A DNA stretch of 64,000 bases from an uncultured bacterium (GCA_903945435.1 CAJAVM010000003.1:1352-65351); one strand, 5' to 3'; counted from the first letter of the stretch, positions 36,662 through 58,940 are shown. Numbers and translations are program-made. Notes: a model not told the origin generated them from the sequence alone.

Positions 36662-36725
36662 ATACGATTTTGGTGTTTAAGACCGACACAAGGCATTAAA
36701 CGTTAGCCAAAATACAAAGAAGTTC

Positions 36726-36746
36726 AGCTTATACTGAGCTTTTTTG
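36726..36746 (+). terminator. rho-independent terminator downstream of lysS/tRNA-Gln
   Basis: agcuua-uac-ugagcu followed by UUUUUU. Confidence 0.4.
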
Positions 36747-36892
36747 TTGGAGTCAAGTGAGTGTAAACTGGTGTAAATAATGAAAAATATTGGTTCGAAT
36801 ACGAGTTCTGTCAAAATATATTTTATAAAAATGTTTCCGAAAAGTTATTGCTATATTTCAGCCATTTTTAGTATGGGCTGGCTAAGTAAAAC

Positions 36893-37699
36893 ATGCTATT
36901 ATGTCAGTGTAATAATATGCCTAATTTTAATAACTTAGATTTAAAAAATTGGAAAGATTCAGAGATTTGGACTGATAGTCTTTGGATTATTAAAGAACGT
37001 GATAAGTCGGGGAAACACGACGGTTTTTATCATGGCAATTTTGTTCCGCAAATACCTCATCAATTAATTTTAAGATATAGTAAAGAGAATGATGTAGTCT
37101 TTGATCCATTTTTAGGTAGCGGCACAACGGCATATGAATGTGAAACTTTAAAGAGACATTTTGTTGGTATAGAAATTCAACCAACATTAGTTAAACATGT
37201 GCAATCAAAACTCGATAGTAAAAAGAATTTCTTTGAGATTTTAGCGGCTGATAGCACTGAAGAAAAGACTTTTAATAAAATAGAAGAAGCTTTAAAGAAA
37301 CATAAGAGAATAAAAGTTCAATTGGCTATTTTACATCCACCATATGCTAATATTGTTAAGTTCAGTGATAATAAAAACGACTTATCTAACGCTAAAGATT
37401 TAAGACAATTTTTGAATCAATTTTCTAGTGTTGTTAAAAATACTTTGACTATTTTAGAAAAAGGGCGGTATATTGCTATAGTTATGGGCGATAAGTATGA
37501 AAAAGGCCAATGGATACCGTTGGGTTTTTATTGTATGAATGAGGCTTATAAGTTGGGTTTAACGCTAAAAAGCGTTATAATAAAGAATATGGAGGGAAAT
37601 AGGGCTAAGCAAAATAAGGAAGGAATCTGGCGTTACCGAGCTCTAACTAGCGATTATTATATTTTTAAACACGAATATATATTAATTTTCAAATATTAG
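36893..37699 (+). CDS. site-specific DNA methyltransferase (amino-methyltransferase, N6A or N4C)
   Basis: Motif I DPFLGSGTTAYEC...FVGIEI and motif IV ILHPPY. The true start is likely M9 (MPNFNN...). Confidence 0.65.
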   Translation: MLLCQCNNMPNFNNLDLKNWKDSEIWTDSLWIIKERDKSGKHDGFYHGNFVPQIPHQLILRYSKENDVVFDPFLGSGTTAYECETLKRHFVGIEIQPTLVKHVQSKLDSKKNFFEILAADSTEEKTFNKIEEALKKHKRIKVQLAILHPPYANIVKFSDNKNDLSNAKDLRQFLNQFSSVVKNTLTILEKGRYIAIVMGDKYEKGQWIPLGFYCMNEAYKLGLTLKSVIIKNMEGNRAKQNKEGIWRYRALTSDYYIFKHEYILIFKY

Positions 37700-37700
37700 T

Positions 37701-38381
37701 ATGACAAATAATGAATTATTTTTAGAACTTGCGAAGCCAAATAAAGATGGTGTGAGTCGCTGGGTTCCAGTTTCAGAATTTATTGGTAAATATAAAAAAC
37801 TTCAACTTGGAAATGGTGGAAGTTGGTGCCGAGCTAGTTCAAGCTTGGCAAAGAAATACATTGTCGAGTTTGATAAAAATAAAACAGCCGGTAATTCTAT
37901 TGACGGAGTTCGCTTGGCTGGTTTTAATAATAAAAAAATATTAAACCAAAATATTAGAAAAGATATAAAAGATTTTTATAAAGTACAAAACTGTGTGATG
38001 CTTGGGGTTAATGGTAAATCTGAAAATACAAAGATAGAAATAGATCACAAAGATGGTAGAAAAGAGGATCACAGACTTTCAAATTTAAAAGAACAACAAA
38101 TAACTGATTTTCAACCACTTTCAAAAGCGGCAAATGATATTAAAAGGCAAATTTGCAAAAGATGTAAGGAAACTAATAAACGTTGGAATGCAAAAAATAT
38201 TAAGGGTAATCCATTTGATTTTTATGCAGGAAATGAAAATTATTCTGAAGAATTGGGATGTAAAGGATGTTACCAATATGATCCTGTAGAATACAGGAAA
38301 GTTGTTGTTAGAAAAGTTGGTGAATTATCAGCAAAGGAAGCGGTAGATAAGGTTTTTAAAAAATTATACCCAGAAGAATAA
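37701..38381 (+). CDS. putative restriction endonuclease (HNH-like), sandwiched between two methyltransferases
   Basis: The EIDHKDGRKEDHRLSNL segment plus CKRC and CKGC cysteine pairs resemble an HNH/His-Me finger nuclease core. Its position, 1 bp after the MTase stop and 10 bp before the next MTase, supports an R-M role (inference). Confidence 0.35.
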   Translation: MTNNELFLELAKPNKDGVSRWVPVSEFIGKYKKLQLGNGGSWCRASSSLAKKYIVEFDKNKTAGNSIDGVRLAGFNNKKILNQNIRKDIKDFYKVQNCVMLGVNGKSENTKIEIDHKDGRKEDHRLSNLKEQQITDFQPLSKAANDIKRQICKRCKETNKRWNAKNIKGNPFDFYAGNENYSEELGCKGCYQYDPVEYRKVVVRKVGELSAKEAVDKVFKKLYPEE

Positions 38382-38390
38382 CAATAAAAT

Positions 38391-39455
38391 ATGAATTACA
38401 TAGGCAGTAAATTATCGTTGTTAGAGTTTTTAGAAAATTCTATAAAAAAAGTAGCTAAAAAAGACTGCAATGTTTTTTGTGACTTATTTGCTGGCACAGG
38501 TATCGTCGGATCATATTTTAAAAAGAAAGGTTTTAAAATTATAGCTAACGATATCCAGTATTACAGCTACGTTTTGAATAGACATTATATTAAAAATCAT
38601 AAACCACTTGAATTTAAAGGTTTGTTTGAATTGATTGCCACTTTGAAAAGTGAGGACATTAAAAATAGGGGAGCTATTGTTTTAGATTATTTGAATAATT
38701 TAAAAGGCAAAAAGGGATTTATTTACAATAATTATTGTTTGGGTGGGACAAAAAACAAGACTGAGCAAAGACTTTATTTTTCGGATGAAAACGGTTTACG
38801 ATGTGATGCTATAAGACAAAAAATAGAAGAATGGAATAACGGCAAAAAAATTAATGAGAATGAATATTATTTTTTATTAGCCAGCTTAGTTGAATCCATT
38901 GATAAATATGCTAACACAGCTTCTGTCTATGGAGCCTTTTTAAAGAGTCTAAAAAAATCTGCTTTAAGGCCTTTAGTTATGAGCCCTGCCGAATTAATAA
39001 TTAATGACCAAGAGCATGAAGTTTACAACGAAGATATTAATTCGGTTGTTAAAAAAATAAAGGGGGATATTTTATATCTTGATCCGCCATATAACCAAAG
39101 GCAATACGCCACGAATTATCATATATTGGAAACAATCGCTAAATATGATAGCCCTGATATTCATGGTAAAACTGGTTTAAGAGAGTATCAAAAACAGAAA
39201 TCTTCCTATTGTTCAACAAATCAGGTTAAAAAATCTTTTAAAGATTTAATCACTAATGCTGACGTTAAATATATATTTTTAAGTTACAATAATGAAGGAT
39301 TAATGAGTGCAGAAGATATAAAAGAAATAATGAGCACTAGGGGTAAATATGGATTTTTTACTCAGGAATATTCTAGATTTAAAGCAGATAAAAATAGGGA
39401 ATATAAAGCTGAAAAAACAGTAGAATATTTACATTATGTTGTCTGCAATAACTAA
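38391..39455 (+). CDS. Dam-family (D12 class) N6-adenine DNA methyltransferase
   Basis: MNYIGSKLSLL start. Motif I DLFAGTGIVGSYF. Motif IV LDPPYNQ. Confidence 0.8.
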   Translation: MNYIGSKLSLLEFLENSIKKVAKKDCNVFCDLFAGTGIVGSYFKKKGFKIIANDIQYYSYVLNRHYIKNHKPLEFKGLFELIATLKSEDIKNRGAIVLDYLNNLKGKKGFIYNNYCLGGTKNKTEQRLYFSDENGLRCDAIRQKIEEWNNGKKINENEYYFLLASLVESIDKYANTASVYGAFLKSLKKSALRPLVMSPAELIINDQEHEVYNEDINSVVKKIKGDILYLDPPYNQRQYATNYHILETIAKYDSPDIHGKTGLREYQKQKSSYCSTNQVKKSFKDLITNADVKYIFLSYNNEGLMSAEDIKEIMSTRGKYGFFTQEYSRFKADKNREYKAEKTVEYLHYVVCNN

Positions 39456-40074
39456 CCATATCGATTCGATAGCGACTTCAGCCGTGACAGCTGTATTAGT
39501 CTTTTTTATCACTAGTCGTATAGATAATAAGTTAAGAGAAAAAAATAATAAACATGAGTTTATAAGAAATCGTGAGTATGATACCCATGAAAATGTTTAT
39601 GAAGAAATTCAAAAGCTAAAAAATGACCCAGAAACAGGCTGGGCTTTTCGTTCTAGTAAAAAAGAAAAATTAGAAGAGCAAAATAATTTAAGTTTTTCTG
39701 AGTTCTGTAATGTCACCAAGAAAATTGAATTTCATAATTTAAATATTGATGGAGCTGAATCTTATATTTTAGACATTATAAAAGATAAAATTATATCTGA
39801 TATAAAAAAGTTATCTCGTCGTAGTAAAAATAAAATTCAGCAAATTTCTAAGGAAATAATTATTAAATATGAAAATGATTTTGAAGTAATTAATTCCGAG
39901 GTAGATGATTTAGTGGAGGGCTTTGGTTATTATGAAGGTAAAAAATTGTCTTTTGATGAGAGTAATTATGTTAGTTATTGTAAGACGCAAAGAGAAATAG
40001 TTCTATTAAATTATTTAGCTCCATTATTAAATAAACTTGAAATTGAACTTTCTGATTATATTAATTTAAAGTAA
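39436..40074 (+). CDS. hypothetical protein (N-terminal TM helix)
   Basis: 212 aa ORF overlapping the upstream MTase by 20 bp. No motifs recognised. Confidence 0.3.
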   Translation: MLSAITNHIDSIATSAVTAVLVFFITSRIDNKLREKNNKHEFIRNREYDTHENVYEEIQKLKNDPETGWAFRSSKKEKLEEQNNLSFSEFCNVTKKIEFHNLNIDGAESYILDIIKDKIISDIKKLSRRSKNKIQQISKEIIIKYENDFEVINSEVDDLVEGFGYYEGKKLSFDESNYVSYCKTQREIVLLNYLAPLLNKLEIELSDYINLK

Positions 40075-41413
40075 TCTTTTTTTCTCTCATAACCAGTTTA
40101 CTCTCTAAACAGCTTAATACTTCTCGCTTCTCAATAATCGACCCCTCTCTAAGCACGTATTTAGCGTAGTTTCTCATATCAACATCTTTCTGCTTATTAA
40201 AGTCTATTTCAGCTGTTCCGAGCAAGCCTTTACTGAATTTGTAGTATCTTTCAATTTCTTCATTGAATTGGTTTTTTAAGCCGATGTCATTTATATCTAG
40301 CTTATCAATTACTTGAGTTAATTGTTCAATTAATTCTTCTTCTCGAAGATAACCGCCTTTGCAGTTTATATTTTTAGCTCTAGAACATCCGTAATATACA
40401 TATCTTCTAACTGACCCATCGGCCAGTTTTTTAAATTTTTCTTCAGCCGAAATGCCTGATCCGCAATGTCCGCATTTGATAAGCTTGGTAAAGGCAAATT
40501 CCTTACAGTCTTGTCTAGAAATATTACCTCGGCTTAATTGCTCATTCGCTTTCGTATATAACTCTTTTGATATAATCGGATCGTATCCGCCTTTATACCA
40601 TTTATCGCTTCCAACTGGATATTCAAATTCGCCATAGTAGAATGGTTCTTTTATCATCCGCTGAACCATACTGATTGTCATGAACTTATTATTTTTTGTC
40701 CGCAAATCAGTTTCATCTTTTAGCCATCTATATATGCGCCGACAGCTATATTGCTCATTGGCTACTTTTTCAAATAATTGTTTTATTATTGGAGCTCTTT
40801 TAGGATCTATAAATACTTTTTTAGCGCCTTTGTCCGCATATTTATCATGTATGTATCCAATCGGCGCTCGCCCAGGACGCCAACCTTGTTCGCACTTAGC
40901 CCTTAATCCTCGTTTAACATTTTCGCCCTTATGGTCATTTTCTAATTTAGCTTGAGAACCTAGAATCATTAATAAAAATTTTTCATTAGGGCTGTTAGTA
41001 AATCTTTGGCCATGAGTTCTAATTTCTTTAATTAACCCCTGATCCATTAAATCAACCATCGCCCCTAAGTCGCCAGCATTACGGCTTAACCGATCAGGCG
41101 CCCAGCAGAGGATTCCATTAAAGATACCTCTTTTGATATCTGTAATTAATTTATTAAAAACTGGCCTCTGTCCAGAATCTTTAGCGGAATGACTTTCCTT
41201 TCTTACCTCAGTTATTTGAATATTATCCCTTATGGCCATTTCCAGCATTTCCTTTATTTGCGAGTCTATTGAAAGAGCCTGCCTTTCATCTTCTTCGGTT
41301 GATTTTCTGGCGTATAAACAGTATTTCATCTCTGTTTCTAATGCCTCTAAATTAGCCCTATTTTGGCCTCCTAGGGCTGTTTTATGCTCTAGTACCGTAG
41401 TTGCTTGGTTCAT
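40061..41413 (-). CDS. large serine recombinase (resolvase/invertase catalytic domain + recombinase domain + zinc ribbon)
   Basis: N-terminal YARKSTEEDERQALSIDSQ (the catalytic Ser context of the resolvase family). Zinc-ribbon cysteines CGHCGSG...YVYYGC. 450 aa. Confidence 0.85.
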   Translation of the reverse strand: MNQATTVLEHKTALGGQNRANLEALETEMKYCLYARKSTEEDERQALSIDSQIKEMLEMAIRDNIQITEVRKESHSAKDSGQRPVFNKLITDIKRGIFNGILCWAPDRLSRNAGDLGAMVDLMDQGLIKEIRTHGQRFTNSPNEKFLLMILGSQAKLENDHKGENVKRGLRAKCEQGWRPGRAPIGYIHDKYADKGAKKVFIDPKRAPIIKQLFEKVANEQYSCRRIYRWLKDETDLRTKNNKFMTISMVQRMIKEPFYYGEFEYPVGSDKWYKGGYDPIISKELYTKANEQLSRGNISRQDCKEFAFTKLIKCGHCGSGISAEEKFKKLADGSVRRYVYYGCSRAKNINCKGGYLREEELIEQLTQVIDKLDINDIGLKNQFNEEIERYYKFSKGLLGTAEIDFNKQKDVDMRNYAKYVLREGSIIEKREVLSCLESKLVMREKKITLN

Positions 41414-41520
41414 ATGGTTATAGTTGTTATAACCAATTAATGACGCTATTAAACAGGGAAGTCTAGGCCTAGCTGTTGGTAACTTAACTTTACTTTTTGG
41501 CTATTTCAAGTTATATTTTA

Positions 41521-41684
41521 AGTGCAAAACCACAAGTTAATATCGTGAAGCACGCGCCAATTTTTTTGGTAGCCTTGGCTTATTCGTATACAGGAACGGG
41601 CATTCCGACCTAATACGAGTAAGCGTCTTCACGGACACTTCTTGTGGTTTTGCAACCAAGGTCGGGTGTCCGTTTTTGTTTTTA
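41521..41684 (+). other. large imperfect inverted-repeat / candidate structured RNA with alternative terminator hairpin
   Basis: Stem A is gcaaaaccacaag(41523-35)/cttgtggttttgc(41640-52). Stem B is cgtgaag(41543-49)/cttcacg(41626-32). Stem C is gcttattcgta(41577-87)/tacgagtaagc(41613-23) with a U-G pair. The tip hairpin is ggaa-cgggca-ttcc. A competing hairpin cggacac(41631-37)/gtgtccg(41665-71) is followed by tttttgttttt. Confidence 0.3.
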
Positions 41685-41724
41685 TAAAGCGGACATTAGA
41701 TATTTATAAATTAATTATAAATTT

Positions 41725-42030
41725 ATGAAAAAATGTCCGTTTTGCGCCGAAGAAATACAAGACGATGCTAAAAAATGCCGTCATTGCGGAGAATATCTTG
41801 ATAAAGATAATAAAATTAAGGTAAGTAAGCATTCTGATTATGCTACGGTCACAATTATTTCCGCCATATTGCCCGTTATAGGCATTATTTTAGGAATTGT
41901 TTATCTCACTAAAAATAGCAAGGCAGATAAAAAATTAGGCGAACACGCAATTGTTGGCAGTATTTTATTTAGTATATTGTGGTTTCTAATTTTGTTAGTA
42001 TTAGGAATCCCTAATTTTATAGTTATTTAA
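41725..42030 (+). CDS. zinc-ribbon domain membrane protein
   Basis: N-terminal CPFC...CRHC zinc ribbon followed by two TM helices. 101 aa. Confidence 0.55.
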   Translation: MKKCPFCAEEIQDDAKKCRHCGEYLDKDNKIKVSKHSDYATVTIISAILPVIGIILGIVYLTKNSKADKKLGEHAIVGSILFSILWFLILLVLGIPNFIVI

Positions 42031-42066
42031 TATTAGTTTTATTAGCAGTCAGCTAATTATAAATTT

Positions 42067-42477
42067 ATGAAAAAATGTCCATTTTGTGCAGAAGAAATTC
42101 AAGATGACGCAAAAAAATGCCGTCATTGCGGGGAGTATCTTGATAAGGGTAATGTTTCTAATAAAATCAACAAAGACGGTAGATTTGATGGATTCATTGA
42201 TTTCTTAAAACGAAAATATCCCGCTTATTCCGTCGTGTCTGAAAATTATGAAAAAAATTATATAGTGCTTAACAAACAGTTAAGCGGTTTAAATCCTTTG
42301 CTGTTTATTATATTACTTCTTCTTTGGATTCTGCCAGGCGTTATATATCTTATCGTGTCTTTAAGTAGTAAAAAAATATTATCATTGACCATACAATTTA
42401 ATGAAAACAATGAGCCAGTTTCTGTTAGCGACGCGAATTTCAATTTTTTAATTGTTAAATATAAAGAGAATAATTAA
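42067..42477 (+). CDS. zinc-ribbon domain membrane protein (tandem paralog of 41725..42030)
   Basis: The first 27 aa (MKKCPFCAEEIQDDAKKCRHCGEYLDK) are identical to the upstream gene, as are 15 nt of 5' leader. A TM helix follows. Confidence 0.55.
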   Translation: MKKCPFCAEEIQDDAKKCRHCGEYLDKGNVSNKINKDGRFDGFIDFLKRKYPAYSVVSENYEKNYIVLNKQLSGLNPLLFIILLLLWILPGVIYLIVSLSSKKILSLTIQFNENNEPVSVSDANFNFLIVKYKENN

Positions 42478-42488
42478 TAGTGAGTAAT

Positions 42489-43949
42489 TTATCTCATCCC
42501 GTAGTACTCTTTATTGTGTTCCCAAATTCCAAAAGATGCAGGCCTTCTTTTATCTAAAATAATTTCATTTATCAGTAGGGTAAAAGCATCGACGAGATCA
42601 TCGTGTTTTTCTATGCCGAAGCCGACCATTTGACTTATTAATTCTTCAGCGCCATTTTTAGGAAATAGTATTCTTCCTGATTTTATTAAATATGTTGTCA
42701 TACTTAGCCTAGACAATTTATCATATCCGCCAATTTTAACGCCTTTGCTCGGGTACCCATCGCTTTTTAATTGCTGGGTGAAGGCACTTTGATAAGCCAC
42801 TTCTTCAACTAATATTTCTATTGGCTTGCCTCCTCCTATAACACTTGATGATAGTTTAATGTTCTCTATTGCTTCGGGAAATTCCATCCTTTTATTTATT
42901 AAATTGGGCAAAATATAAATTTTCATATCTTTGTCATATCCATACACCCTTGCACTTACCGCCGCCGTATAATCTGCGGTGGTTTTTGTTGATATAGCTA
43001 AATCAACGCCCATTTTTTCATAGCGATAATTATCTGGCGGAAGGGAATCATAGTACTGTAGCCATTCTTCACGGACAACTTGATCTTCGGCTGGTAATAT
43101 CTTCAGCATGAATTCTCGGTTGAAAGTGACCGCATCATAAGTATTTTTTAAATCTTCAATACTCTCATAAGTCGGGTATCTGCTAGGCCAGAGAACAACC
43201 CCATCTTCATTTATAAGCGGGTATGCTTTATAAACACCACCTCTGATTTTATTATCATTTATTTTTGCTTCCAGTCTTTTAATAACTGAGTCTTGGTGTA
43301 AGAGATTTCCAATTACAACAACAACTGTGTTCATATCTCCAGCTGGCAAAACTTCGCCCATTAGCCAATTAAATGATTTATCCCGCCCCTCCTTAGTTTT
43401 AACTGATTGAAGGTCTTCAATATCGTCGACAACAATTAAGTCTGGGCGGTATTGATTGTGTCTGGTTCCTCTAACGCTCTGTTCGACTGAAGCAGTTGCT
43501 ATTCTGGCATTGAATTTTGTCAGCACTAAAGTTTGTGAACCCCATTGATTAGGTTCTTCTTTGAATGGTCCCAGATCGCCTTTAAGTAATTGATTCTTTT
43601 CTAATTCACTCTTTATGCTTTGGAGCATGGTTTGTGCCTTTGCTTGGGTCTGGCTGATAAGAAGAACGTATTTCTTTTCAAGCTTACCCATAATCGCCCA
43701 GAGAGGATAAGAAAGACCCATGATAGTTGATTTGGCTGATCCTCTAAAAGCAACCACAACCATCATCTTATTTTTTGTGTCTTCAGTCAGACTAAACATT
43801 TCTCTTTGAAACATTGCTGTTTCCACTGTCACATAATGATTCATGTAAAGATAGAAAAACCAGTAATGACTTTCCTTAACAGTGGCCAAGCGAACCAGCC
43901 TATCGGTTAACAATTTATTAATTATTTTTTCAGTCGTTAGCTTTTTCAT
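42489..43949 (-). CDS. phage terminase large subunit
   Basis: Walker A-like VAFRGSAKST. Walker B LIVVDDIED. C-terminal RNase-H-like nuclease motifs (EKMGVDLAISTK ... GIEKHDDLVDAF). Confidence 0.7.
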   Translation of the reverse strand: MKKLTTEKIINKLLTDRLVRLATVKESHYWFFYLYMNHYVTVETAMFQREMFSLTEDTKNKMMVVVAFRGSAKSTIMGLSYPLWAIMGKLEKKYVLLISQTQAKAQTMLQSIKSELEKNQLLKGDLGPFKEEPNQWGSQTLVLTKFNARIATASVEQSVRGTRHNQYRPDLIVVDDIEDLQSVKTKEGRDKSFNWLMGEVLPAGDMNTVVVVIGNLLHQDSVIKRLEAKINDNKIRGGVYKAYPLINEDGVVLWPSRYPTYESIEDLKNTYDAVTFNREFMLKILPAEDQVVREEWLQYYDSLPPDNYRYEKMGVDLAISTKTTADYTAAVSARVYGYDKDMKIYILPNLINKRMEFPEAIENIKLSSSVIGGGKPIEILVEEVAYQSAFTQQLKSDGYPSKGVKIGGYDKLSRLSMTTYLIKSGRILFPKNGAEELISQMVGFGIEKHDDLVDAFTLLINEIILDKRRPASFGIWEHNKEYYGMR

Positions 43950-44344
43950 ATATTTTTATCAAGAGCTGCTAGTTTGAGTGCTTGCTTTACGGCTTGTTTC
44001 TGCTCTTTAGTTAATTCAAGAGTATGTTCAATTTTTCCTTTTAACTCCAGTTTGTCAGCATAAACAGGGTGATTATTTCTTAACCAAAAAAAGATAGCTT
44101 GCATGCTTTTATCCTTGATGCCTGATATCAGCTGTGATTCGGCGATGTCATTTATAAATAAGCGCCCCTCAAGGAAAGCTTTATCAACTTGCTCGGAAAA
44201 CTTTTTATCTTCCTTTTTCCAGCGATAGAAGGTTGTTCTGCCAATGCCGTTTTTTTCACAAACCAGCTGGATAATAGGAGTTTTTCTCAAGCCCTCAATT
44301 ATCAGTGCCTTGCCACTATTTTTTGCTTTTGTTTCTTTGTCCAT
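43946..44344 (-). CDS. putative phage terminase small subunit (HTH)
   Basis: 132 aa. HTH segment GIGRTTFYRWKK. It overlaps the terL start by 4 bp. The call rests on position and domain inference. Confidence 0.45.
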   Translation of the reverse strand: MDKETKAKNSGKALIIEGLRKTPIIQLVCEKNGIGRTTFYRWKKEDKKFSEQVDKAFLEGRLFINDIAESQLISGIKDKSMQAIFFWLRNNHPVYADKLELKGKIEHTLELTKEQKQAVKQALKLAALDKNI

Positions 44345-44349
44345 ATTAT

Positions 44350-46487: not shown

Positions 46488-47243
46488 TTATAATTTTTTT
46501 AGATTATTTAGAGCATCTTTATACCTTTTTCTATAAATTGCTACCTCACTGTATCCCAAGGCAACTCGGTTTTTACCGTATTTATCGTTTAATTCTTTGG
46601 AAATTTTTTTATCCCCCTTTTTTATTTTAGTTAAATCCCAGGTATCTTTGGCTACGGTTTGAGGCTTCTTAACTTTGTTATTTTTTCCATCTTTTATTAT
46701 CTCGGTTATTTTTTTACATGCCATAGCTATATCTCGGCTGGTTGTGTGAGGAAAAATTTCTAGATATATTTTTCCCGGGGTAAAAGTGTACTTATTTATT
46801 TCTGGGTTTTCGTTAGCAATAATAATTCGTGTTCCAGGAATCTTCTTTCTGGTAAGCCCAGATTTTAGTTTTATTCCTTCTTTTGAAAATTCAGGCAATA
46901 AGTAAGTAATTAGATTTTTATTTATTATATAATCAGCTGTAAAAAATACACAGTTAGAAATTAGATTATTCGGTATTTTAAATTTACTTATTAGTTTTTT
47001 TGAATTCAAAAATAAGATTCTGTGATTCTTGCTATTTGCATGTTCCCAATCAAAAGACAGTTGGTTATTATTAAAGCCTTCTTTTGGAATATTAAGATTG
47101 GTTCTTATCCTCCCAACTTCTTTAATAAAGAAAGGATGGTCTAATAACAAGGAATAAAGCCATGACTCATCTCTAGATAAATCATCTCCGTTTGGAAAAG
47201 TGTATATATTGCTATTTTCTATTTTTTGGTTATTTATACTCAT
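46488..47243 (-). CDS. hypothetical protein (first gene of the leftward MTase/terminase operon)
   Basis: 251 aa ORF with no recognised motifs. Basic C-terminal region. Confidence 0.3.
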   Translation of the reverse strand: MSINNQKIENSNIYTFPNGDDLSRDESWLYSLLLDHPFFIKEVGRIRTNLNIPKEGFNNNQLSFDWEHANSKNHRILFLNSKKLISKFKIPNNLISNCVFFTADYIINKNLITYLLPEFSKEGIKLKSGLTRKKIPGTRIIIANENPEINKYTFTPGKIYLEIFPHTTSRDIAMACKKITEIIKDGKNNKVKKPQTVAKDTWDLTKIKKGDKKISKELNDKYGKNRVALGYSEVAIYRKRYKDALNNLKKL

Positions 47244-47280
47244 ATATTGTTATTTTATCATTATTAGCCATTTTTAGGTA

Positions 47281-47315
47281 GTTTACTATGATTTATTAAT
47301 ATAATATTAGTAAAC
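47281..47315. promoter_or_regulatory. inverted repeat gtttacta-N19-tagtaaac in divergent promoter region (candidate operator)
   Basis: Perfect 8 bp arms at 47281-47288 and 47308-47315. They lie between the divergent 46488..47243 (-) and 47355..50231 (+) genes. A candidate -10 TATAAT lies at 47379-47384. Confidence 0.3.
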
Positions 47316-47354
47316 GAGATAGCTTAACCTTAGCAAAAAATACCTTGATTTTGC

Positions 47355-50231
47355 TTGTTTTTAGGAGTAAAGTCTAAATATAATTATAAAAGAAGCAAAA
47401 ATATGATTCAACAAAAATTTCCAAGAGGCTCGGAGTGGAGAAAATGGGATTTGCACGTGCATACTCCAGCTTCATTTTTTTGGGTAGGAGGCAAAAAATT
47501 AAAGGATTTATCTGATGAAATTAAGGAAGGCCATGTTGAATCAGAAAAAGATGAAGAAATAAAAAAATTCATAAAAGCCGTTAATGAATCGGACGTAGCA
47601 GTTTTTTGTATAATGGATTATTGGACGTTTGATTGGTATATAGAGCTAAAAAAATATTTACTAAGGCACCCAGGAGAATTGAACAAAACCATTTTTCCTG
47701 GTATGGAGTTGCGTGTTGAATGCCCAGTTGACTATAGACTCAATATTCATTTTATTTTGTCAGATAAATTAACTGAACAGAATTTAAATGATTTTAAGTC
47801 AGAATTAATGATAAGATCAGTTAACAGAAAATTGTCGGAGGAGGCCTTAATTGCTTCTGCAAAAATGCTAGACGCCAGTAAGGCTGCGGTGCATGGATAT
47901 GGAGACCCGTCTGTTTTGTCCGATGAAAAGTTATTAGAATTAGGTTCTAAAACGGTAGAAATAACAAAAGATTCTTTAAATACAGCATTAAAAAATATTC
48001 CGCCAGAGTCAGGCTATATTATTTTACCATATGATACCTCCGATGGACTTATTGATTTGGATTGGAAAACTCATCCACACGATGATAATTATTTCATGCA
48101 AACGGCTAGTATTATTGAAACTAGAAAAGCGGATAATGTAGATTTGTTCAATTGTTTGAAAACTGAAGCAAATAAAGATTTTTTTATTAATTTTAGTAAG
48201 ACTATTAAAAATACACCAAAACCATGTGTTTCTGGAAGTGATGCCCATGAGTATAAAAATTATGGAAAATATCCATCTGATAAAATTACATGGGTTAAGG
48301 CTGACCCAACATTTGAAGGTTTAAAACAAATAATATATGAGCCAGTAGATAGGGTTAAAATTCAAGAGTCTAGACCGGAAGAAAAAGATGATTACCAAGT
48401 TATAGATAAAATAAATTTTATAGACAATAAGTTTTTGCCAGACGATATATTAATAAATGAAAACTTAACAACGATTATCGGAGGTAAGTCTACTGGAAAG
48501 TCAGTTTTATTAAGAAATATAGCTAAAACTATTGACCCCGAAGAAGTTAAAACAAGACTTGGAGAGGTTGGCTTATCTGAATACGAAAAAGATGTAGAAG
48601 GATTCAAGGTTATTTGGAAAGATGGGCAGGAAAATGTTAAAAATGAAGATAAAGGAGTTAGAAAAAAAATTATTTATATACCGCAATCATATCTCAACAG
48701 ACTGGTAGATAAAAAAGAAGATAAAACATCTATAGACGAAATAATCAGAAATGTTCTACAACAGGATGATGAGGTAAGCAAAGCATTTGAGGAATTGAAA
48801 GAGTTTGAAAGAAATAATGAAAAAGAAATTTCTAAAAATGTGGATGATCTTTTTTACTCCAAAAAAGATTTTGCTGAACAATCTGAACTTATCAAAAATA
48901 TTGGCGACAAAAGGGGTATTTCTGAACAAATAAAAAGATTAGAGGTAGAAATTAAGGATTTGAAGGAAAAGGCTGGCATGACCCCCGATCAGATTTCTAA
49001 TTATAATTTATTAACGGAGAAAATAGGCAAAATAAAAAAGGAGAAGGAAGTAATTAACAACGATTTAATTTATTTAGATGCATTATCAAAAACAGATCCA
49101 TTCTTATTTATAGACTTTGAAGGGATTTCGTTGGAAATTAAAAATGGAATTTCCACTGATTTTGATAAATTAAAAATGGAATTTATTATTTCATGGCAGG
49201 CTCGTATTAGTGTAAGTGTAGGCAAACTTAACGAGGATTTAATCACAAAGGAATTAGAATTAATATCGGCTACAGATGAGTTAAATCCGTTATTAGAAAA
49301 AGCTAGAGAGAGTCGTGCATTAAATGAAAAAATTTCTAGATTAGATGGCGAAAAAAGTAAACTTAACACAATAGAAAAAGAAGAGTTGAAGCTAGAAAAA
49401 ATTAGACAAAATTATTTTAAATCGTTGTCTAATATGTCCGAATTGCACTTGGAATTTTATAATAAATATTTTGACAGTAGGGCTAAAATATTGAAACAGA
49501 CTATCATAGATGGAGAGATAACTTTTGATTTAAACGTTTCTTTCAGAAGTTTGTATTTTCAGAAAAATATTAATGAAATATTTGACCAAAGAAAATTGTC
49601 TAAATTTACCGATGTTAATATATTAGATTATTCATATTCTGATAATATTAATTTAAAACAGGACATAAGCAAAGTTATTTCTGGAATTTTATCTGAAAAG
49701 TTAGTCTTGAAAAGTGGCTATTCAAAAAAGGATGCAATAAATAAGATGTTACAGAATTGGTTTTCTTTAGATTATGCTATTAAGCAGAATGATGACGATA
49801 TTTCACAGATGTCTCCAGGAAAGAAGTCATTTGTTTTATTGAAATTATTAATAGAGCTTGATAAAAGCAAGTGCCCTATATTGTTAGACCAGCCAGAAGA
49901 CGATTTGGATAACAGATCTATATATAATGATTTAGTTAGGTTTATAAAAGATAAGAAGAAAGGAAGGCAAATTATTATAGCAACGCATAATCCGAATTTG
50001 GTTATTGGTGCGGATGCTGAAAATATTATTGTTGCCAACCAAAGTGGTGAAAAGACCCCAAACAAAACTTTTCAATTTGAGTATGTCACAGGCTCTATTG
50101 AGGATTCTTTTGAAAATAGTGGAGAAACAGCAATTTTATATCAGAAAGGTATTCAAGAACACGCCTGTGATATATTAGAAGGCGGTGAAGATGCCTTTAA
50201 GAAGCGAAAGCGACAATATAGTTTTAATTAA
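47355..50231 (+). CDS. PHP-domain phosphoesterase fused to ABC/Rad50-like (AAA_15/AAA_21-type) coiled-coil ATPase; Ppl-like
   Basis: PHP motifs WDLHVHTP, GMELRV and SGSDAHEY. Walker A IIGGKSTGKS. A coiled-coil of about 250 aa. A signature-like MSPGKKS, Walker B ILLDQPEDD and the H-loop IIATHNP. The called start is TTG at 47355. The ATG at 47403 (MIQQKFPRGSEWRKWDLHVHTP) is more likely the true start. Confidence 0.7.
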   Translation: MFLGVKSKYNYKRSKNMIQQKFPRGSEWRKWDLHVHTPASFFWVGGKKLKDLSDEIKEGHVESEKDEEIKKFIKAVNESDVAVFCIMDYWTFDWYIELKKYLLRHPGELNKTIFPGMELRVECPVDYRLNIHFILSDKLTEQNLNDFKSELMIRSVNRKLSEEALIASAKMLDASKAAVHGYGDPSVLSDEKLLELGSKTVEITKDSLNTALKNIPPESGYIILPYDTSDGLIDLDWKTHPHDDNYFMQTASIIETRKADNVDLFNCLKTEANKDFFINFSKTIKNTPKPCVSGSDAHEYKNYGKYPSDKITWVKADPTFEGLKQIIYEPVDRVKIQESRPEEKDDYQVIDKINFIDNKFLPDDILINENLTTIIGGKSTGKSVLLRNIAKTIDPEEVKTRLGEVGLSEYEKDVEGFKVIWKDGQENVKNEDKGVRKKIIYIPQSYLNRLVDKKEDKTSIDEIIRNVLQQDDEVSKAFEELKEFERNNEKEISKNVDDLFYSKKDFAEQSELIKNIGDKRGISEQIKRLEVEIKDLKEKAGMTPDQISNYNLLTEKIGKIKKEKEVINNDLIYLDALSKTDPFLFIDFEGISLEIKNGISTDFDKLKMEFIISWQARISVSVGKLNEDLITKELELISATDELNPLLEKARESRALNEKISRLDGEKSKLNTIEKEELKLEKIRQNYFKSLSNMSELHLEFYNKYFDSRAKILKQTIIDGEITFDLNVSFRSLYFQKNINEIFDQRKLSKFTDVNILDYSYSDNINLKQDISKVISGILSEKLVLKSGYSKKDAINKMLQNWFSLDYAIKQNDDDISQMSPGKKSFVLLKLLIELDKSKCPILLDQPEDDLDNRSIYNDLVRFIKDKKKGRQIIIATHNPNLVIGADAENIIVANQSGEKTPNKTFQFEYVTGSIEDSFENSGETAILYQKGIQEHACDILEGGEDAFKKRKRQYSFN

Positions 50232-50256
50232 TTTATAAATTGGCAAAATTAATAGT

Positions 50257-51012
50257 ATGTTTAATATTCAAAATATTATAAATTTTATACCAATTGCTGT
50301 AATTATTTCAGCTATTGTTTTTTTAGTAAAATTCTTTGGAAAAGCGAGCACCGATCAGGTTCCGTTTGCTGATAATAGATCTTGGCATGAAGAATTATTT
50401 GGAATTGAATTTTTTGCCACCAGACTTGCATCTCCTTTAATATTCATATTTATTTTATATTCACGTCACTGGAATCCGCTGAAATTTACATCGGATGATT
50501 TATGGCTTTTTATTTTTGGAATTATTTCGGTAGTCATGCTTAACTTAGCTTCAAAAAATGCATTTAAATTTTTTAAAGATGATAACTTTGACGACGGGAA
50601 TCTTTTATCACTTTTAAAAAAGTTATATAAAAATAAAAATGATGAAAAGTTTGAACAAGGAGAAAATTTGTTAATTCTAAAACACCTTGTTTTCCCAGTA
50701 GTCGCTTATTTTATGATGGTGATGCTCATTCTTTTTTATGAATGGGGATCTTATTACCATTTATTAATTGCAATAATTTATTTCTTATTTTTTCTCTTAT
50801 CGTTTGCCCTTTTATTATCATTAAAAAAACGGAATATATTAAAGGCTAATATAAAATTTATCAACAATGAGGAAGAAGAAATAAAAGATTGCAGGGTCTT
50901 AAGGATAAATGAAGATAATATCAAAGTTAAAATTACAAATAATAAAGTTATAATTTTAAATAAGTCCACTGTTTCGAGGATAGAATTTGTTAATAATAAT
51001 TTGGAAAACTAA
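50257..51012 (+). CDS. polytopic membrane protein (4-5 TM) with C-terminal soluble domain
   Basis: Hydrophobic helices (IPIAVIISAIVFLV; LIFIFILY; LWLFIFGIISVVML; VFPVVAYFMMVMLILF; LLIAIIYFLFFLLSFALLL). It starts 25 bp after the PHP-ATPase stop. Confidence 0.45.
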   Translation: MFNIQNIINFIPIAVIISAIVFLVKFFGKASTDQVPFADNRSWHEELFGIEFFATRLASPLIFIFILYSRHWNPLKFTSDDLWLFIFGIISVVMLNLASKNAFKFFKDDNFDDGNLLSLLKKLYKNKNDEKFEQGENLLILKHLVFPVVAYFMMVMLILFYEWGSYYHLLIAIIYFLFFLLSFALLLSLKKRNILKANIKFINNEEEEIKDCRVLRINEDNIKVKITNNKVIILNKSTVSRIEFVNNNLEN

Positions 51013-51571
51013 ATTTATGGGCATAGCTTATAAAAATTTTTGGAGTTTAAATACCGACGAAGCCGTTGTGGCTGGTATTTTAAGAAATGCCACCAGCAAA
51101 GATGTGGAAGTGTTAATGCCGTTAAATGCCCAAATGAAAGGAGTCGATCTTTACCTGTTAAATATTAAGACTAAAAATATTATAACTATTCAAGTAAAGG
51201 GAAGCAGGGCGTATGAACCACAGAAGGCTGAAGTCAAAAAATATGGTGACGGTTCAGGCGGTTGGTTTTTCTTTCCAAAAGAAGTAGTAACTAATGCGAC
51301 AGCAGATTTTTTCTGTTTTTTGATTTACATACTTGAAGAAAACGGAAAAACAGGAAGAAGAATTATTACGCCACATACATTAATGATCCCGACGCAAGTT
51401 TTAAAAGAAAAAAGTTTAAAATATAAAAAAACCCATGGGGATGGCCGCTTTAGTTATAAGATTTGGGTTAACCCATCAGACAAAAAGGCTTTTGATTTTA
51501 GAGATGAAAAAATTGATTTCGATGATTTTTTGGATAAAAAAGGTTTTGCTGTGATTAATAAAGAATTATAA
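50987..51571 (+). CDS. hypothetical protein, possible PD-(D/E)xK (restriction-endonuclease-like) fold
   Basis: E...D...QVK pattern (DVEV ... GVDLYLLN ... IQVKG). The true start is probably the ATG at 51017 (MGIAYKN). Inference only. Confidence 0.3.
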   Translation: MLIIIWKTKFMGIAYKNFWSLNTDEAVVAGILRNATSKDVEVLMPLNAQMKGVDLYLLNIKTKNIITIQVKGSRAYEPQKAEVKKYGDGSGGWFFFPKEVVTNATADFFCFLIYILEENGKTGRRIITPHTLMIPTQVLKEKSLKYKKTHGDGRFSYKIWVNPSDKKAFDFRDEKIDFDDFLDKKGFAVINKEL

Positions 51572-51585
51572 ATATTTTTCTTGGT

Positions 51586-52719
51586 ATGATTGAAGAATTT
51601 TTTAAAAAAGATCCAATTGAAAAAGTTGAAAGAGAACTGAGATTTTTGGTGTGGGATATCCTTTCTCAGAAATACGGTGAAGGCTGGATTTATAATGAGG
51701 AAATTATTTGCAAACAAAAATGGGCAGATGAATTAAAAAAAGTTTTTGAAAAAGATAAAAAAATACAACATAACGATAATATTCGTGAATTGTTGATTTC
51801 ATATGCCGATTTTTTTGACATAAAAAAGCTTATAAAGAAAAATCGATCATTATTTGAATCTGTTTTTTCTAATTTTGAAGTTATTGTCGGCTATATTGAA
51901 ACTATTATTGGTCTTCGTAATGCAATTAAACATCATCGCGATATCTCATTAAATCAGCAACATCTTTTAATAGGAATATGCGGAGAAATAATTGATGCAA
52001 TTAACCTCTGGAGAATAGGATCAAAAATAGAATTAGATCGAATCGTTTTGTCTTTTAATGATTATATTGCGACTGAGGGGAAAAGTGAAACGCAAATTTT
52101 GTCGGAGGCAATTGAAAAAATAAATGAAATTCAAAATATTTTTTTGCATTCTTTAAAAAGTAATAGTATTGAGATTTTTAATACGAATAATAGTAGTGAT
52201 TTTGAAACCGTAATTAATACTCAGTATATTAAAATTGAGATAAGAACAAATAATAAAATCACTCCTGACAGTAAAATAGACAATATAGAATATAAGACTA
52301 TTCATAGTCGCTTGAGCTACAAAGCTGAATGCCCAGTGTCCCTAGACTTGATAATGGCAAATACAAATAAAACCTATCGGGTTATAGAGTATCTATTAAA
52401 AGGATTTATAGATATTAATCGTTTGAAAGAATGGTCTGAAAGACAGGCGGGGCTAACTCCTGGATCAAGCGTTGCCACGAACGGATCTTTTGATAGTATT
52501 GATTATGGTTTTTTGGGTGGAAAAATTAGAGTTCAGGCGGGGAAGCATGTGAATGAATTAAATGAAATTTGCGGAAAATTATCTTTATTGAATAATATTA
52601 ATGCTGAAAAATGGAATCCGCATTCAAATATAACGCCTAATGATTTAATAGGATTTATGCTTGGTAATATTTCTTCAAGAACTATCATGAATCTTTACAG
52701 AGAATCATTAGGTAAATAA
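51586..52719 (+). CDS. HEPN-domain protein (Rx4H motif), Abi/Swt1-like
   Basis: LRNAIKHH at aa 110-117 (nt 51913-51936) gives the HEPN Rx4-6H signature in a helical context. 377 aa. Confidence 0.4.
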   Translation: MIEEFFKKDPIEKVERELRFLVWDILSQKYGEGWIYNEEIICKQKWADELKKVFEKDKKIQHNDNIRELLISYADFFDIKKLIKKNRSLFESVFSNFEVIVGYIETIIGLRNAIKHHRDISLNQQHLLIGICGEIIDAINLWRIGSKIELDRIVLSFNDYIATEGKSETQILSEAIEKINEIQNIFLHSLKSNSIEIFNTNNSSDFETVINTQYIKIEIRTNNKITPDSKIDNIEYKTIHSRLSYKAECPVSLDLIMANTNKTYRVIEYLLKGFIDINRLKEWSERQAGLTPGSSVATNGSFDSIDYGFLGGKIRVQAGKHVNELNEICGKLSLLNNINAEKWNPHSNITPNDLIGFMLGNISSRTIMNLYRESLGK

Positions 52720-52723
52720 AAAA

Positions 52724-53716
52724 ATGTCTGGATACGATCAAACAATAAAAATAAAAGTAAAATTTCAAGAAGACACTAAAAAGTTTTTAAAATTTTTAAA
52801 TTCTGTTGGCAAAAAGTACAAACGACCAACAATAATAAATTATAGATATCTTGGAAGGGGCAGATTCAATCTTATAGTTGATGGTGGCCCTGGTGGAATA
52901 GATGCTTTATTTCAAGAATTAGTGCTTAACAAGGGGTTGTATTATTACGGTTGCACTTTAAATAATAAAAAAGATATTATTTCCAATGTCATCCTTCCCG
53001 TATTTAGGCAGTTAATAGATAGGAGATTCGAAAATTCTCAGTCAAGATTTTTAAGAAAACATATACTAGGAAAATCTGCTCAGACAGAATTTGTCCCTTC
53101 TAATGCCACTGGTCGATTTAGTTATTTAATGGAAATCATATATAGAAAATGGGATATCGGAATTATAACAAATAAAGATTATATAATAGAAATTGATGGG
53201 GTTTTAAATAGTTTTTTAATGAATAAACTCGGATATAAAGAGGGCGATAGGAGTCCGAAATTCGATAGACTATTATCTAGTTTTAAAAAATCATTTTTAA
53301 TAAATGATATGCAGGGAGTCTTTCATGATGTTCATAAAATGAAAACGGAAGTATATCATAGACTTAGTGATATTAAAACAAAGGACAAATTGGAATTTAT
53401 ATCTAATAACTTGTTAAGCTATTTTAATTATTTTGATGAATTTGAGGCATCACAAAAAATAAAAACGATTAAGATTAGAGGAAAGAGGTATAGGAGAATA
53501 AAATATGGTTATGAAAAATGTGTGGATAGTAACGGACTTCCTTATCTGAATGACGATGGGACTCCAATTGACTGGGTAAAAATATCAAGCGAAAAAGATT
53601 GTCATGATTGCGGGGTGAAAAGAGGCCAGTATCACGTTGAGGGTTGTGATGCTGAGGTTTGTCCGAAGTGCGGAGGGCAATATATTAGTTTTGATTGCGG
53701 ATTGCCAACTTATTAA
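52724..53716 (+). CDS. hypothetical protein with C-terminal zinc-finger/zinc-ribbon
   Basis: C-terminal CHDCG...H...C...CPKCGGQY...C. It starts 4 bp after the HEPN gene stop. Confidence 0.35.
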   Translation: MSGYDQTIKIKVKFQEDTKKFLKFLNSVGKKYKRPTIINYRYLGRGRFNLIVDGGPGGIDALFQELVLNKGLYYYGCTLNNKKDIISNVILPVFRQLIDRRFENSQSRFLRKHILGKSAQTEFVPSNATGRFSYLMEIIYRKWDIGIITNKDYIIEIDGVLNSFLMNKLGYKEGDRSPKFDRLLSSFKKSFLINDMQGVFHDVHKMKTEVYHRLSDIKTKDKLEFISNNLLSYFNYFDEFEASQKIKTIKIRGKRYRRIKYGYEKCVDSNGLPYLNDDGTPIDWVKISSEKDCHDCGVKRGQYHVEGCDAEVCPKCGGQYISFDCGLPTY

Positions 53717-53750
53717 AAATACCGCCTTCGACCTAGGCGGTATTTTGTAT
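53716..53750. terminator. strong bidirectional rho-independent terminator
   Basis: Perfect 11 bp stem aaaataccgcc/ggcggtatttt with loop ttcgaccta. Confidence 0.55.
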
Positions 53751-53824
53751 AAAAAATCCTAAATTATTTTGCCCCGTATCGCTTGCATTTTTACATTTTG
53801 ACAAACAAAATAAAATAGAATTAT

Positions 53825-54034
53825 TTATCTTCGATGTTGTATCTGATCAACTCTATTTTCCTTTAGATAATTAATAATATCTTCTTCGGAAAAACGGAGA
53901 ACACCATTTATCTTGTAGAAGGGAATTTTTCTTCCTTCGACAATGCGATAGGCGGTAGTCTGGGATATGTTAAATATTTGACCAAGATCTTTAATTGATA
54001 GGAGTTTTAAATTTTTTAGAGACATGTCATTCAT
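53825..54034 (-). CDS. excisionase/AlpA-family HTH DNA-binding protein
   Basis: 69 aa. LSIKDLGQIFNISQTTAYRIVEGRKIPFYKINGVLRFSEEDIINYLKE matches the HTH_17/excisionase-family domain pattern. Confidence 0.6.
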   Translation of the reverse strand: MNDMSLKNLKLLSIKDLGQIFNISQTTAYRIVEGRKIPFYKINGVLRFSEEDIINYLKENRVDQIQHRR

Positions 54035-54105
54035 ATCCTCTATTTTACTATAAAATTAAATAATTTAGAATATTGTTCCTTGTGCTATTATTTGTTGGTT
54101 TAGTC

Positions 54106-54154
54106 AAATGGAACACGGGAAAATGCCCCTTGTGGTGTGCCATTTGTTCCATTT
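54106..54154. promoter_or_regulatory. 10 bp perfect inverted repeat aaatggaaca/tgttccattt upstream of the Xis-like gene
   Basis: Arms at 54106-54115 and 54145-54154. Direct repeats of ttgttcc and ccttgtg also occur in 54072-54133. Confidence 0.3.
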
Positions 54155-54337
54155 ACCCACTAAATACCCGACCGACTGCCGTTATTTCGCCCCAATATAT
54201 ATCTTCAAAAAACCTTTGAAAATTGCTATATCCTTGGTTCTAGACAGACACGGGGAGCTAAATAAAAAACTGCGTACTATAATGGTATGCAGTTTTTTAT
54301 TTGATCAAATAATTTTAAGGTTTATTGTAATTTACTA

Positions 54338-58928: not shown

Positions 58929-58940
58929 ATAAATAAATAA

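Follow-up and report, generated by a model that had tools for sequence, protein, structure and literature searches.

In the SatelliteFinder scheme, the definition of phage-inducible chromosomal islands (PICIs) treats tyrosine and serine integrases as exchangeable components, and the capsid-forming variety (cfPICIs) is defined by genes for the capsid, portal, and head-tail adaptor or connector (PMC10085698). In the hotspots of P2 prophages and P4 satellites, a conserved mobile frame holds fixed slots in which unrelated defense systems replace each other (PMC9122126). Here, we describe an island that resembles these systems in some respects and departs from each of them in others. It lies in a 64,000-nucleotide stretch of DNA from an uncultured bacterium (GCA_903945435.1, CAJAVM010000003.1:1352-65351), referred to below as the window, in which an initial annotation had singled out positions 36662 to 54337, next to a tRNA-Gln gene, as a satellite, a defense island, or a heavily decayed prophage. 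With moderate confidence, we regard the region from ~36806 to ~54261 as one horizontally acquired integrative element, a satellite-like defense island that is integrated by a serine recombinase and would package itself with its own terminase.

The evidence for this reading starts from a conserved core of 7.3 kb (positions 40064 to 47373) within the ~17.5 kb of island DNA that follows the tRNA-Gln gene. The open reading frames (ORFs) of the island were scanned against Pfam, PHROG, PADLOC, and NCBIfam, and relatives were collected by TerL and recombinase scans of viral and metagenome contigs, which yielded 28 loci (designated here, like the other loci compared, by the letter L and a number). Matches to Pfam, PHROG, and NCBIfam recovered the serine recombinase, the TerS/TerL pair, the two phage-type DNA methyltransferases (MTases), and the candidate defense operon that the initial annotation had listed, with every frame gene on the minus strand and every cargo gene on the plus strand. 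The tRNA-side end of the core is formed by a large serine recombinase of 450 aa (40061-41413, minus strand), which scores above the cutoffs for the Pfam domains Resolvase, Recombinase, and Zn_ribbon_recom, matches PHROG integrases with an E value of 2e-64, and has the catalytic Ser in its YARKST motif as well as the DRLSR motif. It is 94% identical in amino acid sequence to the copies in L101 and L102, with a ratio of nonsynonymous to synonymous divergence (dN/dS) of 0.03; the only recombinase in the island is of this serine type, and it is presumed to be the element's integrase.

The remaining core genes, all on the minus strand, are those for TerL (42489-43949; phrog_38 with an E value of 9e-75, Pfam Terminase_6C, and NCBIfam terminase models), in which the Walker A, Walker B, and nuclease acidic residues are invariant relative to L100; for TerS (43946-44344; PHROG small-terminase families and HTH_Tnp_1_2), which overlaps TerL by 4 bp; and for two MTases that match, as a pair, PHROG 498 and ParB-like families. 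The first of these (44350-45201) is a phage-type N6_N4_Mtase according to Pfam, and the second (45089-46363) combines an N-terminal ParB-like domain with an N6_N4 MTase domain, as supported by Pfam, PHROG, and the ParB_N annotation of its homologues. The first gene of the core operon (46488-47243) encodes a 251-aa protein that is not matched by any family in Pfam, PADLOC, PHROG, or NCBIfam or by any entry in the PDB and has only 9 clusters of homologues; homologues occupy the same position in L101, L102, L120, and L131 to L133, and an AlphaFold2 model built from 10 sequences had a predicted local distance difference test score of 59 and was not used. Nucleotide comparison shows 84% identity of the core to that of L101, with the similarity ending at position 40064 on the recombinase side, whereas on the opposite side the similarity with L101, L102, and L120 ends at ~47373 to 47385.

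The absence of virion genes, stated in the initial annotation, is borne out by the family scans. Capsid, portal, tail, and lysis families had 0 matches among the island ORFs in Pfam, PHROG, and NCBIfam, and the same method found such genes in a control phage contig. This contig, L096, is the nearest true phage (TerL 36% identical), and its TerL gene is followed by those for the portal, protease, and major head proteins; therefore, the absence of structural genes in the clade of the window's TerL is not a detection failure. A portal gene after TerL was never seen in this clade (at least 42% identity). One member, L107, was considered as a true prophage and rejected, as the long run of same-strand genes after its TerL encodes large proteins without assignment, an ABC ATPase, and an MTase but nothing structural.

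The description of the island as a satellite or defense island rather than an intact phage thus agrees with our results, but the other option offered with it, a temperate phage in which deletions removed the genes for structure, lysis, and replication and whose remainder is drifting, appears very improbable. It is true that TerS, TerL, the ParB-MTase, and the serine integrase are all of phage type, that the order MTase-TerS-TerL is the normal one in phages, as in L095 and L098, and that the island appears fixed in the sampled population. However, all core ORFs are intact, with no stop codons in any core gene in comparisons with L101, L102, and L120, and in the same comparisons the MTases, TerS, TerL, and recombinase have dN/dS values of 0.006 to 0.06 at synonymous divergence (dS) of 0.4 to 1.3, which is near saturation. 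By gene, these values are 0.006 to 0.06 for TerS/TerL and 0.03 to 0.06 for the two MTases. Judged by such substitution patterns, the cassette of terminase, MTase, and recombinase genes is intact, under strong purifying selection, and still functional, which makes a decaying prophage unlikely. Further, more than 25 other loci, with a GC content of 30 to 62%, repeat this layout without a capsid, none of them having the portal that follows TerL in the 36% identical phage relative, and it is implausible that identical deletions arose independently.

The distribution of the cassette points in the same direction as its conservation. A protein search retrieved more than 2,800 TerL homologues at E values of 1e-20 or below, comprising more than 120 clusters at 49% identity or higher; those that carry names belong to Patescibacteria, Kuenenbacteria, and Berkelbacteria, and the contigs reach 1.18 Mb. 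As far as these homologues can tell, the cassette recurs widely, and mostly in chromosomes of the Candidate Phyla Radiation (CPR), without virion genes. Clustering of ORFs from 24 loci (GC content of 30 to 62%) left only TerS/TerL, the (ParB-)MTases, and the recombinase as shared genes. A Pfam census of 125 neighboring ORFs returned mostly restriction-modification (R-M) and defense families, among them N6_Mtase, Eco57I, MmeI, Type ISP, HsdR/S, AAA_15, HEPN_AbiV, RVT_1, and AAA_5, whereas none of the structural families was represented more than once. Three further contexts of the cassette have SNF2/Eco57I, SMODS, diversity-generating retroelement (DGR), and GmrSD neighbors. In two loci, the parts of a DGR, namely, an RVT_1 reverse transcriptase and bAvd, lie beside the terminase cassette (L129:14150-15603 and L130:13326-14753). 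The closest GenBank phages are at most 28% identical to the window's TerL and recombinase, so that the cassette has no named phage relative.

Dispersed gene transfer agent (GTA) loci occur in other bacteria, and the island could, in principle, supply packaging and integration for a prophage that is split, or for a system like a GTA, with head and tail genes elsewhere in the genome, given that a TerS/TerL pair under selection implies the existence of capsids somewhere. Against this, structural genes are absent from the 64-kb window and from the 10 kb on either side of the cassette in more than 25 loci, and an integrase and exchangeable cargo accompany the cassette, as in a mobile element; we consider such a split arrangement improbable.

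The opposite end of the frame is conserved as well and, unlike the left one, can be placed with some precision. The first gene reading inward from the right end (53825-54034, minus strand) encodes a 69-aa HTH_17 protein of the excisionase/MerR type (PF12728, PADLOC mad1, PHROG excisionase and HTH families) that is 99% identical in amino acid sequence to its counterpart in L102 and is a candidate regulator or recombination directionality factor. An AlpA/Xis-like gene had been predicted at this far end, and one is indeed present, but as the minus-strand ORF just described and not as the 77-aa ORF at 54108-54341 that had been assigned this role. Beyond it lies a conserved non-coding segment (54035-54261, without strand assignment), delineated from alignments of the window, L102, L131, L132, and L133, whose ~230 bp have 94 to 98% nucleotide identity among the window, L102, L131, and L132. 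In the comparison with L102, this non-coding DNA is ~98% identical, as opposed to ~83% for the coding core. Within the segment lies a perfect inverted repeat of 10 bp, AAATGGAACA...TGTTCCATTT, at 54108-54160, and in four variants of the element the conservation begins at TT(A/G)GCTCCCCG, which corresponds to position 54261 of the window, with different sequences outside. Comparison with relatives, suggested in the initial annotation as a means of defining the ends, accordingly maps the right end to ~54261, or to 54305 if the adjoining hairpin is counted in; the left end could only be bracketed, and no empty site came to light. Strong hairpins with differing stems adjoin the right end in both the window and L131. 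A structured RNA in this segment was considered and dropped, as there was no Rfam match and the folding z-scores of -1.0 and -0.5 were not significant. The segment might serve as an operator, as a pac site, or as a site for a recombinase. An exact 27-mer from this conserved end had 0 matches in IMG/VR, which was searched for excised or virion copies.

The frame formed by this right end and the core travels with changing cargo. L102, L131, and L132 have in common with the window the HTH_17 gene, the 230 bp beyond it, the core, and one operon gene; L133, compared over the frame, has the frame of the window. In all four, the right end and core are as in the window, with different genes in the main cargo position (slot A), between the HTH_17 gene and the 251-aa core gene. 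In the window, slot A holds a five-gene candidate defense operon (47355-53716, plus strand) that encodes, in this order, a TrlF-family AAA-like ATPase of 958 aa and proteins of 251, 194, 377 (HEPN), and 330 aa, the last with a C-terminal Zn ribbon. The ATPase (47355-50231) matches the NCBIfam model NF045780 (TrlF_fam_ATP) with 553.5 bits against a cutoff of 350 and over its full length (protein residues 24 to 955, positions 1 to 943 of 944 in the model). The family is named after a temperature-restricting locus of Photorhabdus that causes growth arrest (bioRxiv 10.1101/2020.06.02.129163). The window's ATPase is also related to the anti-phage protein Ppl, and its four partner genes differ from trlR and trlG. 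PADLOC matches in the operon are to the Ppl C terminus and to PDC-M34B, and the fourth protein has a weak match to the Pfam family HEPN_Swt1. In relatives, slot A contains Gabija (L101 and L120), AAA_13/NOV_C/AbiV (L102 and L131), or Hachiman together with NOV_C/AbiV (L133). On the basis of these family matches, the cargo that is swapped between relatives consists of predicted defense systems.

A smaller slot between TerL and the recombinase (41725-42477, plus strand) is occupied in the window by two tandem paralogues with Pfam zinc-ribbon domains, of 101 and 136 aa, and in L099, L100, and L107 by tRNA_anti-like or HepT-like genes. The two Zn-ribbon genes are a tandem duplication, with 89% identity over a 5' stretch of 100 nt that takes in the ribosome-binding region (41712-41811 versus 42054-42153). 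In two other loci (L112:11552-11792 and L119:11629-11780), 2 or 3 tRNA genes (Arg-TCT, Arg-CCT, and Phe-GAA) lie between TerL and the recombinase; either these tRNAs are borne by the element or TerL and the recombinase stem from separate insertions there.

The third cargo position (slot B) is the interval between the recombinase and the tRNA. The initial annotation had listed an R-M cassette, and the presence of R-M genes holds, but there are two cassettes rather than one, both encoded on the plus strand. The first consists of an N6_N4 DNA MTase (36893-37699; Pfam N6_N4_Mtase, E value of 1e-26) and an IceA/NlaIII-family endonuclease (37701-38381; Pfam ICEA, E value of 2e-119); an IceA-family endonuclease adjoining an adenine MTase is what identifies an NlaIII/IceA-type R-M system. 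The second, a candidate system, pairs a D12/Dam-class MTase (38391-39455; Pfam MethyltransfD12, E value of 3e-50) with a 212-aa protein (39436-40074), a candidate endonuclease without matches in Pfam, PADLOC, PHROG, NCBIfam, or the PDB, the end of whose gene overlaps the recombinase stop by 14 bp. L101 and L102 have a common Eco57I-type R-M system beside the recombinase (90% nucleotide identity), although the DNA beyond it differs, and the same position is filled by MTase or R-M genes again in L099, L133, and L128. Because these loci refill the same position, the interval between the recombinase and the tRNA can be seen as a recurrent cargo slot.

These same data bear on a different view, in which the locus is a composite of independent insertions, with the R-M cassettes (36893-40074), and possibly the deacetylase on the right, inserted separately and the element confined to ~40061-54261 with the recombinase at its edge. 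The similarity of the window to L101 breaks off precisely at the stop codon of the recombinase, as does that of L109 to L114; in L109, just 415 bp separate the tRNA and the recombinase; past the R-M genes, no conserved sequence marking a left end came to light; and the tetranucleotide usage of the R-M block is host-like (z below 1). A different large serine recombinase lies directly against tRNA-Gln in L044, L017, and L018. The common R-M genes of L101 and L102 and the recurrent use of the slot in L099, L133, and L128 speak for internal cargo, and we judge the composite somewhat unlikely, while giving it appreciable weight.

The left end itself is bracketed to ~36806-36892. It follows a host-like segment (36662-36805, plus strand) that aligns with the post-tRNA DNA of L101 up to position 36805. 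This segment includes a hairpin at 36715-36746, a putative terminator (z = -3.3, from folding only); a scan for consensus terminators called none at either end of the island, so that the hairpins described here rest on folding. At 36792-36802, there is a degenerate fragment resembling a tRNA T-arm, GGTTCGAATAC, and similar fragments are found ~165 bp past tRNA-Gln in L029, L032, L038, L042, L043, and L045; a search for the missing half of the fragment did not find it.

In the window, the 3' end of tRNA-Gln faces the 3' end of the recombinase gene at a distance of 3.4 kb, and this arrangement is seen in 7 of the ~11 loci that could be evaluated, at distances of 0.4 to 4.3 kb. The facing tRNAs are those for Gln (the window and L101), Asn (L099), Ser-gct (L107 and L128), and Glu (L109 and L130). 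No second copy of the tRNA-Gln 3' end exists anywhere in the window, in agreement with the initial annotation, and no repeat of the tRNA 3' end was found in six related loci. It is plausible that the missing repeat reflects integration by a serine recombinase, with which it fits without proving it. Neither direct nor inverted repeats above chance were found to connect the surroundings of the tRNA with the recombinase flanks and with the right end of the island; the two ends have an inverted match of 6 bp (TCTGTC/GACAGA), which did not exceed chance and was dropped.

The island also differs from its surroundings in composition, a comparison that the initial annotation had suggested. Relative to the host flanks (window positions 1-36661 and 55445-64000), it is depleted in CCGG (3 observed versus 24 expected in the island and 69 versus 76 in the flanks; P = 5e-7 for the contrast), whereas GATC is not avoided in the island (44 versus 52) but is strongly avoided in the flanks (36 versus 110; P = 3e-8). 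The depletion of CCGG covers the whole island, cargo included, and is seen again in the elements of L101, L102, L114, and L120 but not in relatives of the host. Avoidance of GATC extends to a relative, L022 (20 observed versus 71 expected), and GATC restriction accordingly looks old in the host lineage. CATG is not avoided in the host (70 observed versus 71 expected) despite the NlaIII-type R-M system in the island, and this system may be a recent arrival. Tetranucleotide distances from the flanks correspond to z values of 4.5 to 6.2 for the operon and 2.2 to 3.5 for the core. Judged by composition and gene comparison, the island is foreign to the host flanks, has a frame-plus-cargo organization, and is associated with tRNA genes.

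The accessory status of the island is evident from its surroundings, too. The host was placed by a LysS scan across species-representative genomes, and on this basis it is a member of “Candidatus Falkowbacteria” (Patescibacteria/CPR). As described in the initial annotation, the block lies between lysS plus tRNA-Gln and a polysaccharide deacetylase gene. Of the two tRNA genes in the window, tRNA-Gln(CTG) (36588-36661, plus strand; called by ARAGORN, Rfam tRNA score of 56.6 bits) starts 15 bp past the end of lysS (35059-36573), and the order lysS-tRNA-Gln is kept in ~30 Falkowbacteria loci. The left flank FtsW...GreA-LysS-tRNA-Gln is syntenic in ~45 loci of metagenome-assembled genomes (MAGs), and the synteny breaks off at the tRNA. 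The gene order of the island is not universally conserved: island genes were found in none of the 22 related species-level MAGs with 2.5 to 9.9 kb of sequence beyond lysS-tRNA-Gln, which have other content there. At least 6 MAG contigs stop no more than 200 bp past tRNA-Gln. In L016, the closest full-length relative (LysS 87% identical), the interval from tRNA-Gln to the GDSL/Acyl3/DEAD genes holds host-like genes for PNPOx, DUF4153, HIT, an LPXTG surface protein, and a sortase. Since synteny ends at the tRNA and relatives hold differing content, the region after lysS-tRNA-Gln is, by gene order, a family-wide variable hotspot.

On the right, the deacetylase (54338-55216, minus strand; Pfam Polysacc_deac_1) is outside the element and in the position that had been described, but it is not a conserved host flank: among relatives, 0 of 80 lysS loci carry it, and host synteny picks up again only at the GDSL gene at 55445. 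Being outside the conserved synteny, the deacetylase is best viewed as a lineage-specific filling of the hotspot; the equivalent right flank in L131 has hemerythrin, DUF488, and cupin genes instead.

The site has been used by other elements as well. A second large serine recombinase (28% identical, a 549-aa ORF at L044:11918-13567) directly abuts tRNA-Gln and is also found at the ends of L017 and L018, in three other species in all, from which repeated use of the site follows. The ORF of this recombinase runs antisense into tRNA-Gln in these loci, and L041, which has a terminator in common and then diverges, resembles an empty site for the L044-type element. In four related MAGs, perfect direct repeats of 17 to 19 nt of the tRNA-Gln 3' end occur 103 to 231 bp downstream (L026:11974-12195, L043:11617-11850, L045:12026-12235, and L061:11980-12085) and bracket small GC-rich inserts. 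The inserts of L043 and L045 are homologous, and the stem of a hairpin within them differs only by fully compensatory changes. This suggests either an RNA with a structure or what is left of an element with a tyrosine integrase; Rfam gave no match. To the left of the island, the same-species contig L001 is 100% identical to the window from ~34500 through the island but only 70 to 80% identical over window positions 30486-34500, across GT1/GT2/DUF192/Wzy surface-glycan genes, which looks as though strains had swapped the glycan cluster directly to the left of GreA-LysS. One contig that could pass for an alternative junction, L004 (2980-3932), was rejected as an assembly chimera at conserved tRNA sequence, with DNA of ~58% GC joined at the first bases of tRNA-Gln.

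If the island is a self-packaging satellite, its life cycle can be outlined as follows. The serine recombinase would integrate the element next to the 3' end of a tRNA gene and, perhaps with the HTH_17 protein as directionality factor, excise it again. The excised element's own TerS and TerL would then recognize its DNA and package it into the procapsids of a helper phage, and the two methylases, together with the depletion of CCGG, would protect this DNA against restriction barriers when it enters new hosts. While the element is integrated, its cargo on the opposite strand (two R-M systems, the Zn-ribbon proteins, and the TrlF/HEPN operon) would shield both host and element from phages. Excision and packaging are steps that we infer from the gene content.

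Several observations weigh against this scheme. We found no empty site, no circular junction, and no att sequence. Searches for exact matches to the LysS, deacetylase, and HTH_17 proteins retrieved 29 same-species contigs from at least 8 samples, and every one that is long enough carries the island at ~100% identity (the short contigs L006, L007, L013, and L014 end at one or the other island edge); the island therefore looks fixed, and its current mobility in the sampled population is conjectural. Primase, helicase, and Rep families had 0 matches among the island ORFs in Pfam, PHROG, and NCBIfam, so that no replication gene was recognized, and no helper phage is known or has been identified. 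Element copies have dS values of ~0.8 to 0.9 compared to ~1.5 to 1.7 for host genes, both near saturation. TerL without capsid genes matches none of the described satellite families (PMC10085698). Finally, the element-side sequences at the left junction are unlike in the window and L101; the R-M cassettes near the tRNA could therefore be separate insertions and not internal cargo, and their membership in the element is uncertain.

Some of these points would suit a domesticated, non-mobile defense island, in which the cassette is kept for a role in the host or in defense, such as interference with phage packaging or DNA rearrangement, and defense genes have accumulated at a tRNA hotspot. The cassette is under very strong selection and always embedded among defense genes, an excised or empty form was not seen, a replication module was not recognized, and the partial tRNA copies in relatives are other signs of accretion at tRNA-Gln. 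Yet the cassette is found at differing tRNAs and flanks across genomes and also at the same site in hosts whose LysS proteins are only 77% identical: L101 carries the core at the identical lysS-tRNA-Gln site, with core proteins that are 94 to 95% identical, compared to 77% for LysS and 72% for GreA. Moreover, the frame, including its conserved non-coding end, moves together while the cargo changes, and the island-wide depletion of CCGG, absent from the host, is typical of DNA that crosses restriction barriers. Domestication thus strikes us as unlikely, and an integrative, satellite-like element accounts better for these observations.

A large part of the diversity of bacteria belongs to the CPR, whose members have genomes of ~1 Mb. 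To our knowledge, they are mostly without CRISPR, and almost no mobile elements or phage-satellite systems have been characterized in them. A cassette with more than 2,800 terminase homologues and swappable defense genes would provide a concrete route for the flow of defense genes in these organisms. We tentatively suggest, as a possibility short of probable, that it represents a large undescribed family, specific to CPR/Patescibacteria, of capsid-less satellites with a complete terminase of their own and protective methylases, which integrate beside tRNA genes via a large serine recombinase and serve as a main vehicle for the exchange of defense systems (R-M, Gabija, Hachiman, AbiV, CBASS-like, and DGR). 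In practice, the cassette can serve as a marker with which to find defense islands in CPR genomes, along with new candidates for defense systems, the TrlF/HEPN operon being one, and recombinases that seem to target tRNA-proximal sites might be of interest as integration tools.

Among known systems, PICIs are similar in being chromosomal islands of comparable size that encode an integrase, a small regulator or excisionase of the HTH type, and their own TerS (PMC10085698), in the absence of tail and lysis genes, and in carrying accessory and defense genes at fixed positions. PICI regulators are of the AlpA/Stl type; the 69-aa HTH_17 protein, compared at the level of the fold, falls into the same class as AlpA/Xis. 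In contrast to PICIs, the island has a full-length TerL, a large serine rather than a tyrosine integrase, no recognized primase or replicase, and two DNA methylases in its conserved core, and its hosts are CPR and not Proteobacteria or Firmicutes. With cfPICIs it shares the TerS and TerL genes, and hence its own packaging specificity and motor, but capsid, portal, and adaptor or connector genes are present in neither the island nor any related locus. The PLE of Vibrio cholerae and the serine-recombinase VEIMEs likewise use a large serine recombinase and in some cases carry R-M or Abi-like genes; however, they depend on the large terminase of the helper, and their hosts and integration targets differ (PMC9618062). 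PLE marker genes, such as capR, repA, and nixI, were not recognized in the general scans of the island, which included no search aimed at them, and because the host is a patescibacterium, membership in the PLE is very unlikely.

The organization of a mobile frame with exchangeable defense cargo is that of the P2/P4 hotspots, although the frame genes are unrelated and the island has at least three slots, with all cargo on the strand opposite to the frame. The tycheposons and tRNA-seeded islands of Prochlorococcus offer another parallel, as they grow beside specific tRNAs in streamlined genomes and are most heterogeneous near the tRNA (bioRxiv 10.1101/2020.12.28.424599). Some of them are PICI-like, and the partial tRNA copies in relatives at the same tRNA-Gln add to the likeness; unlike the island, with its serine recombinase, terminase pair, and lack of a tRNA repeat, they rely on tyrosine recombinases that leave partial-tRNA repeats. 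By gene content, then, the element departs from defining features of each of these known satellites, as it lacks a primase, a capsid module, and a tyrosine recombinase. If the satellite reading is true, it would represent a packaging strategy outside the four described satellite families, one in which the element brings its own TerS and TerL but no capsid.

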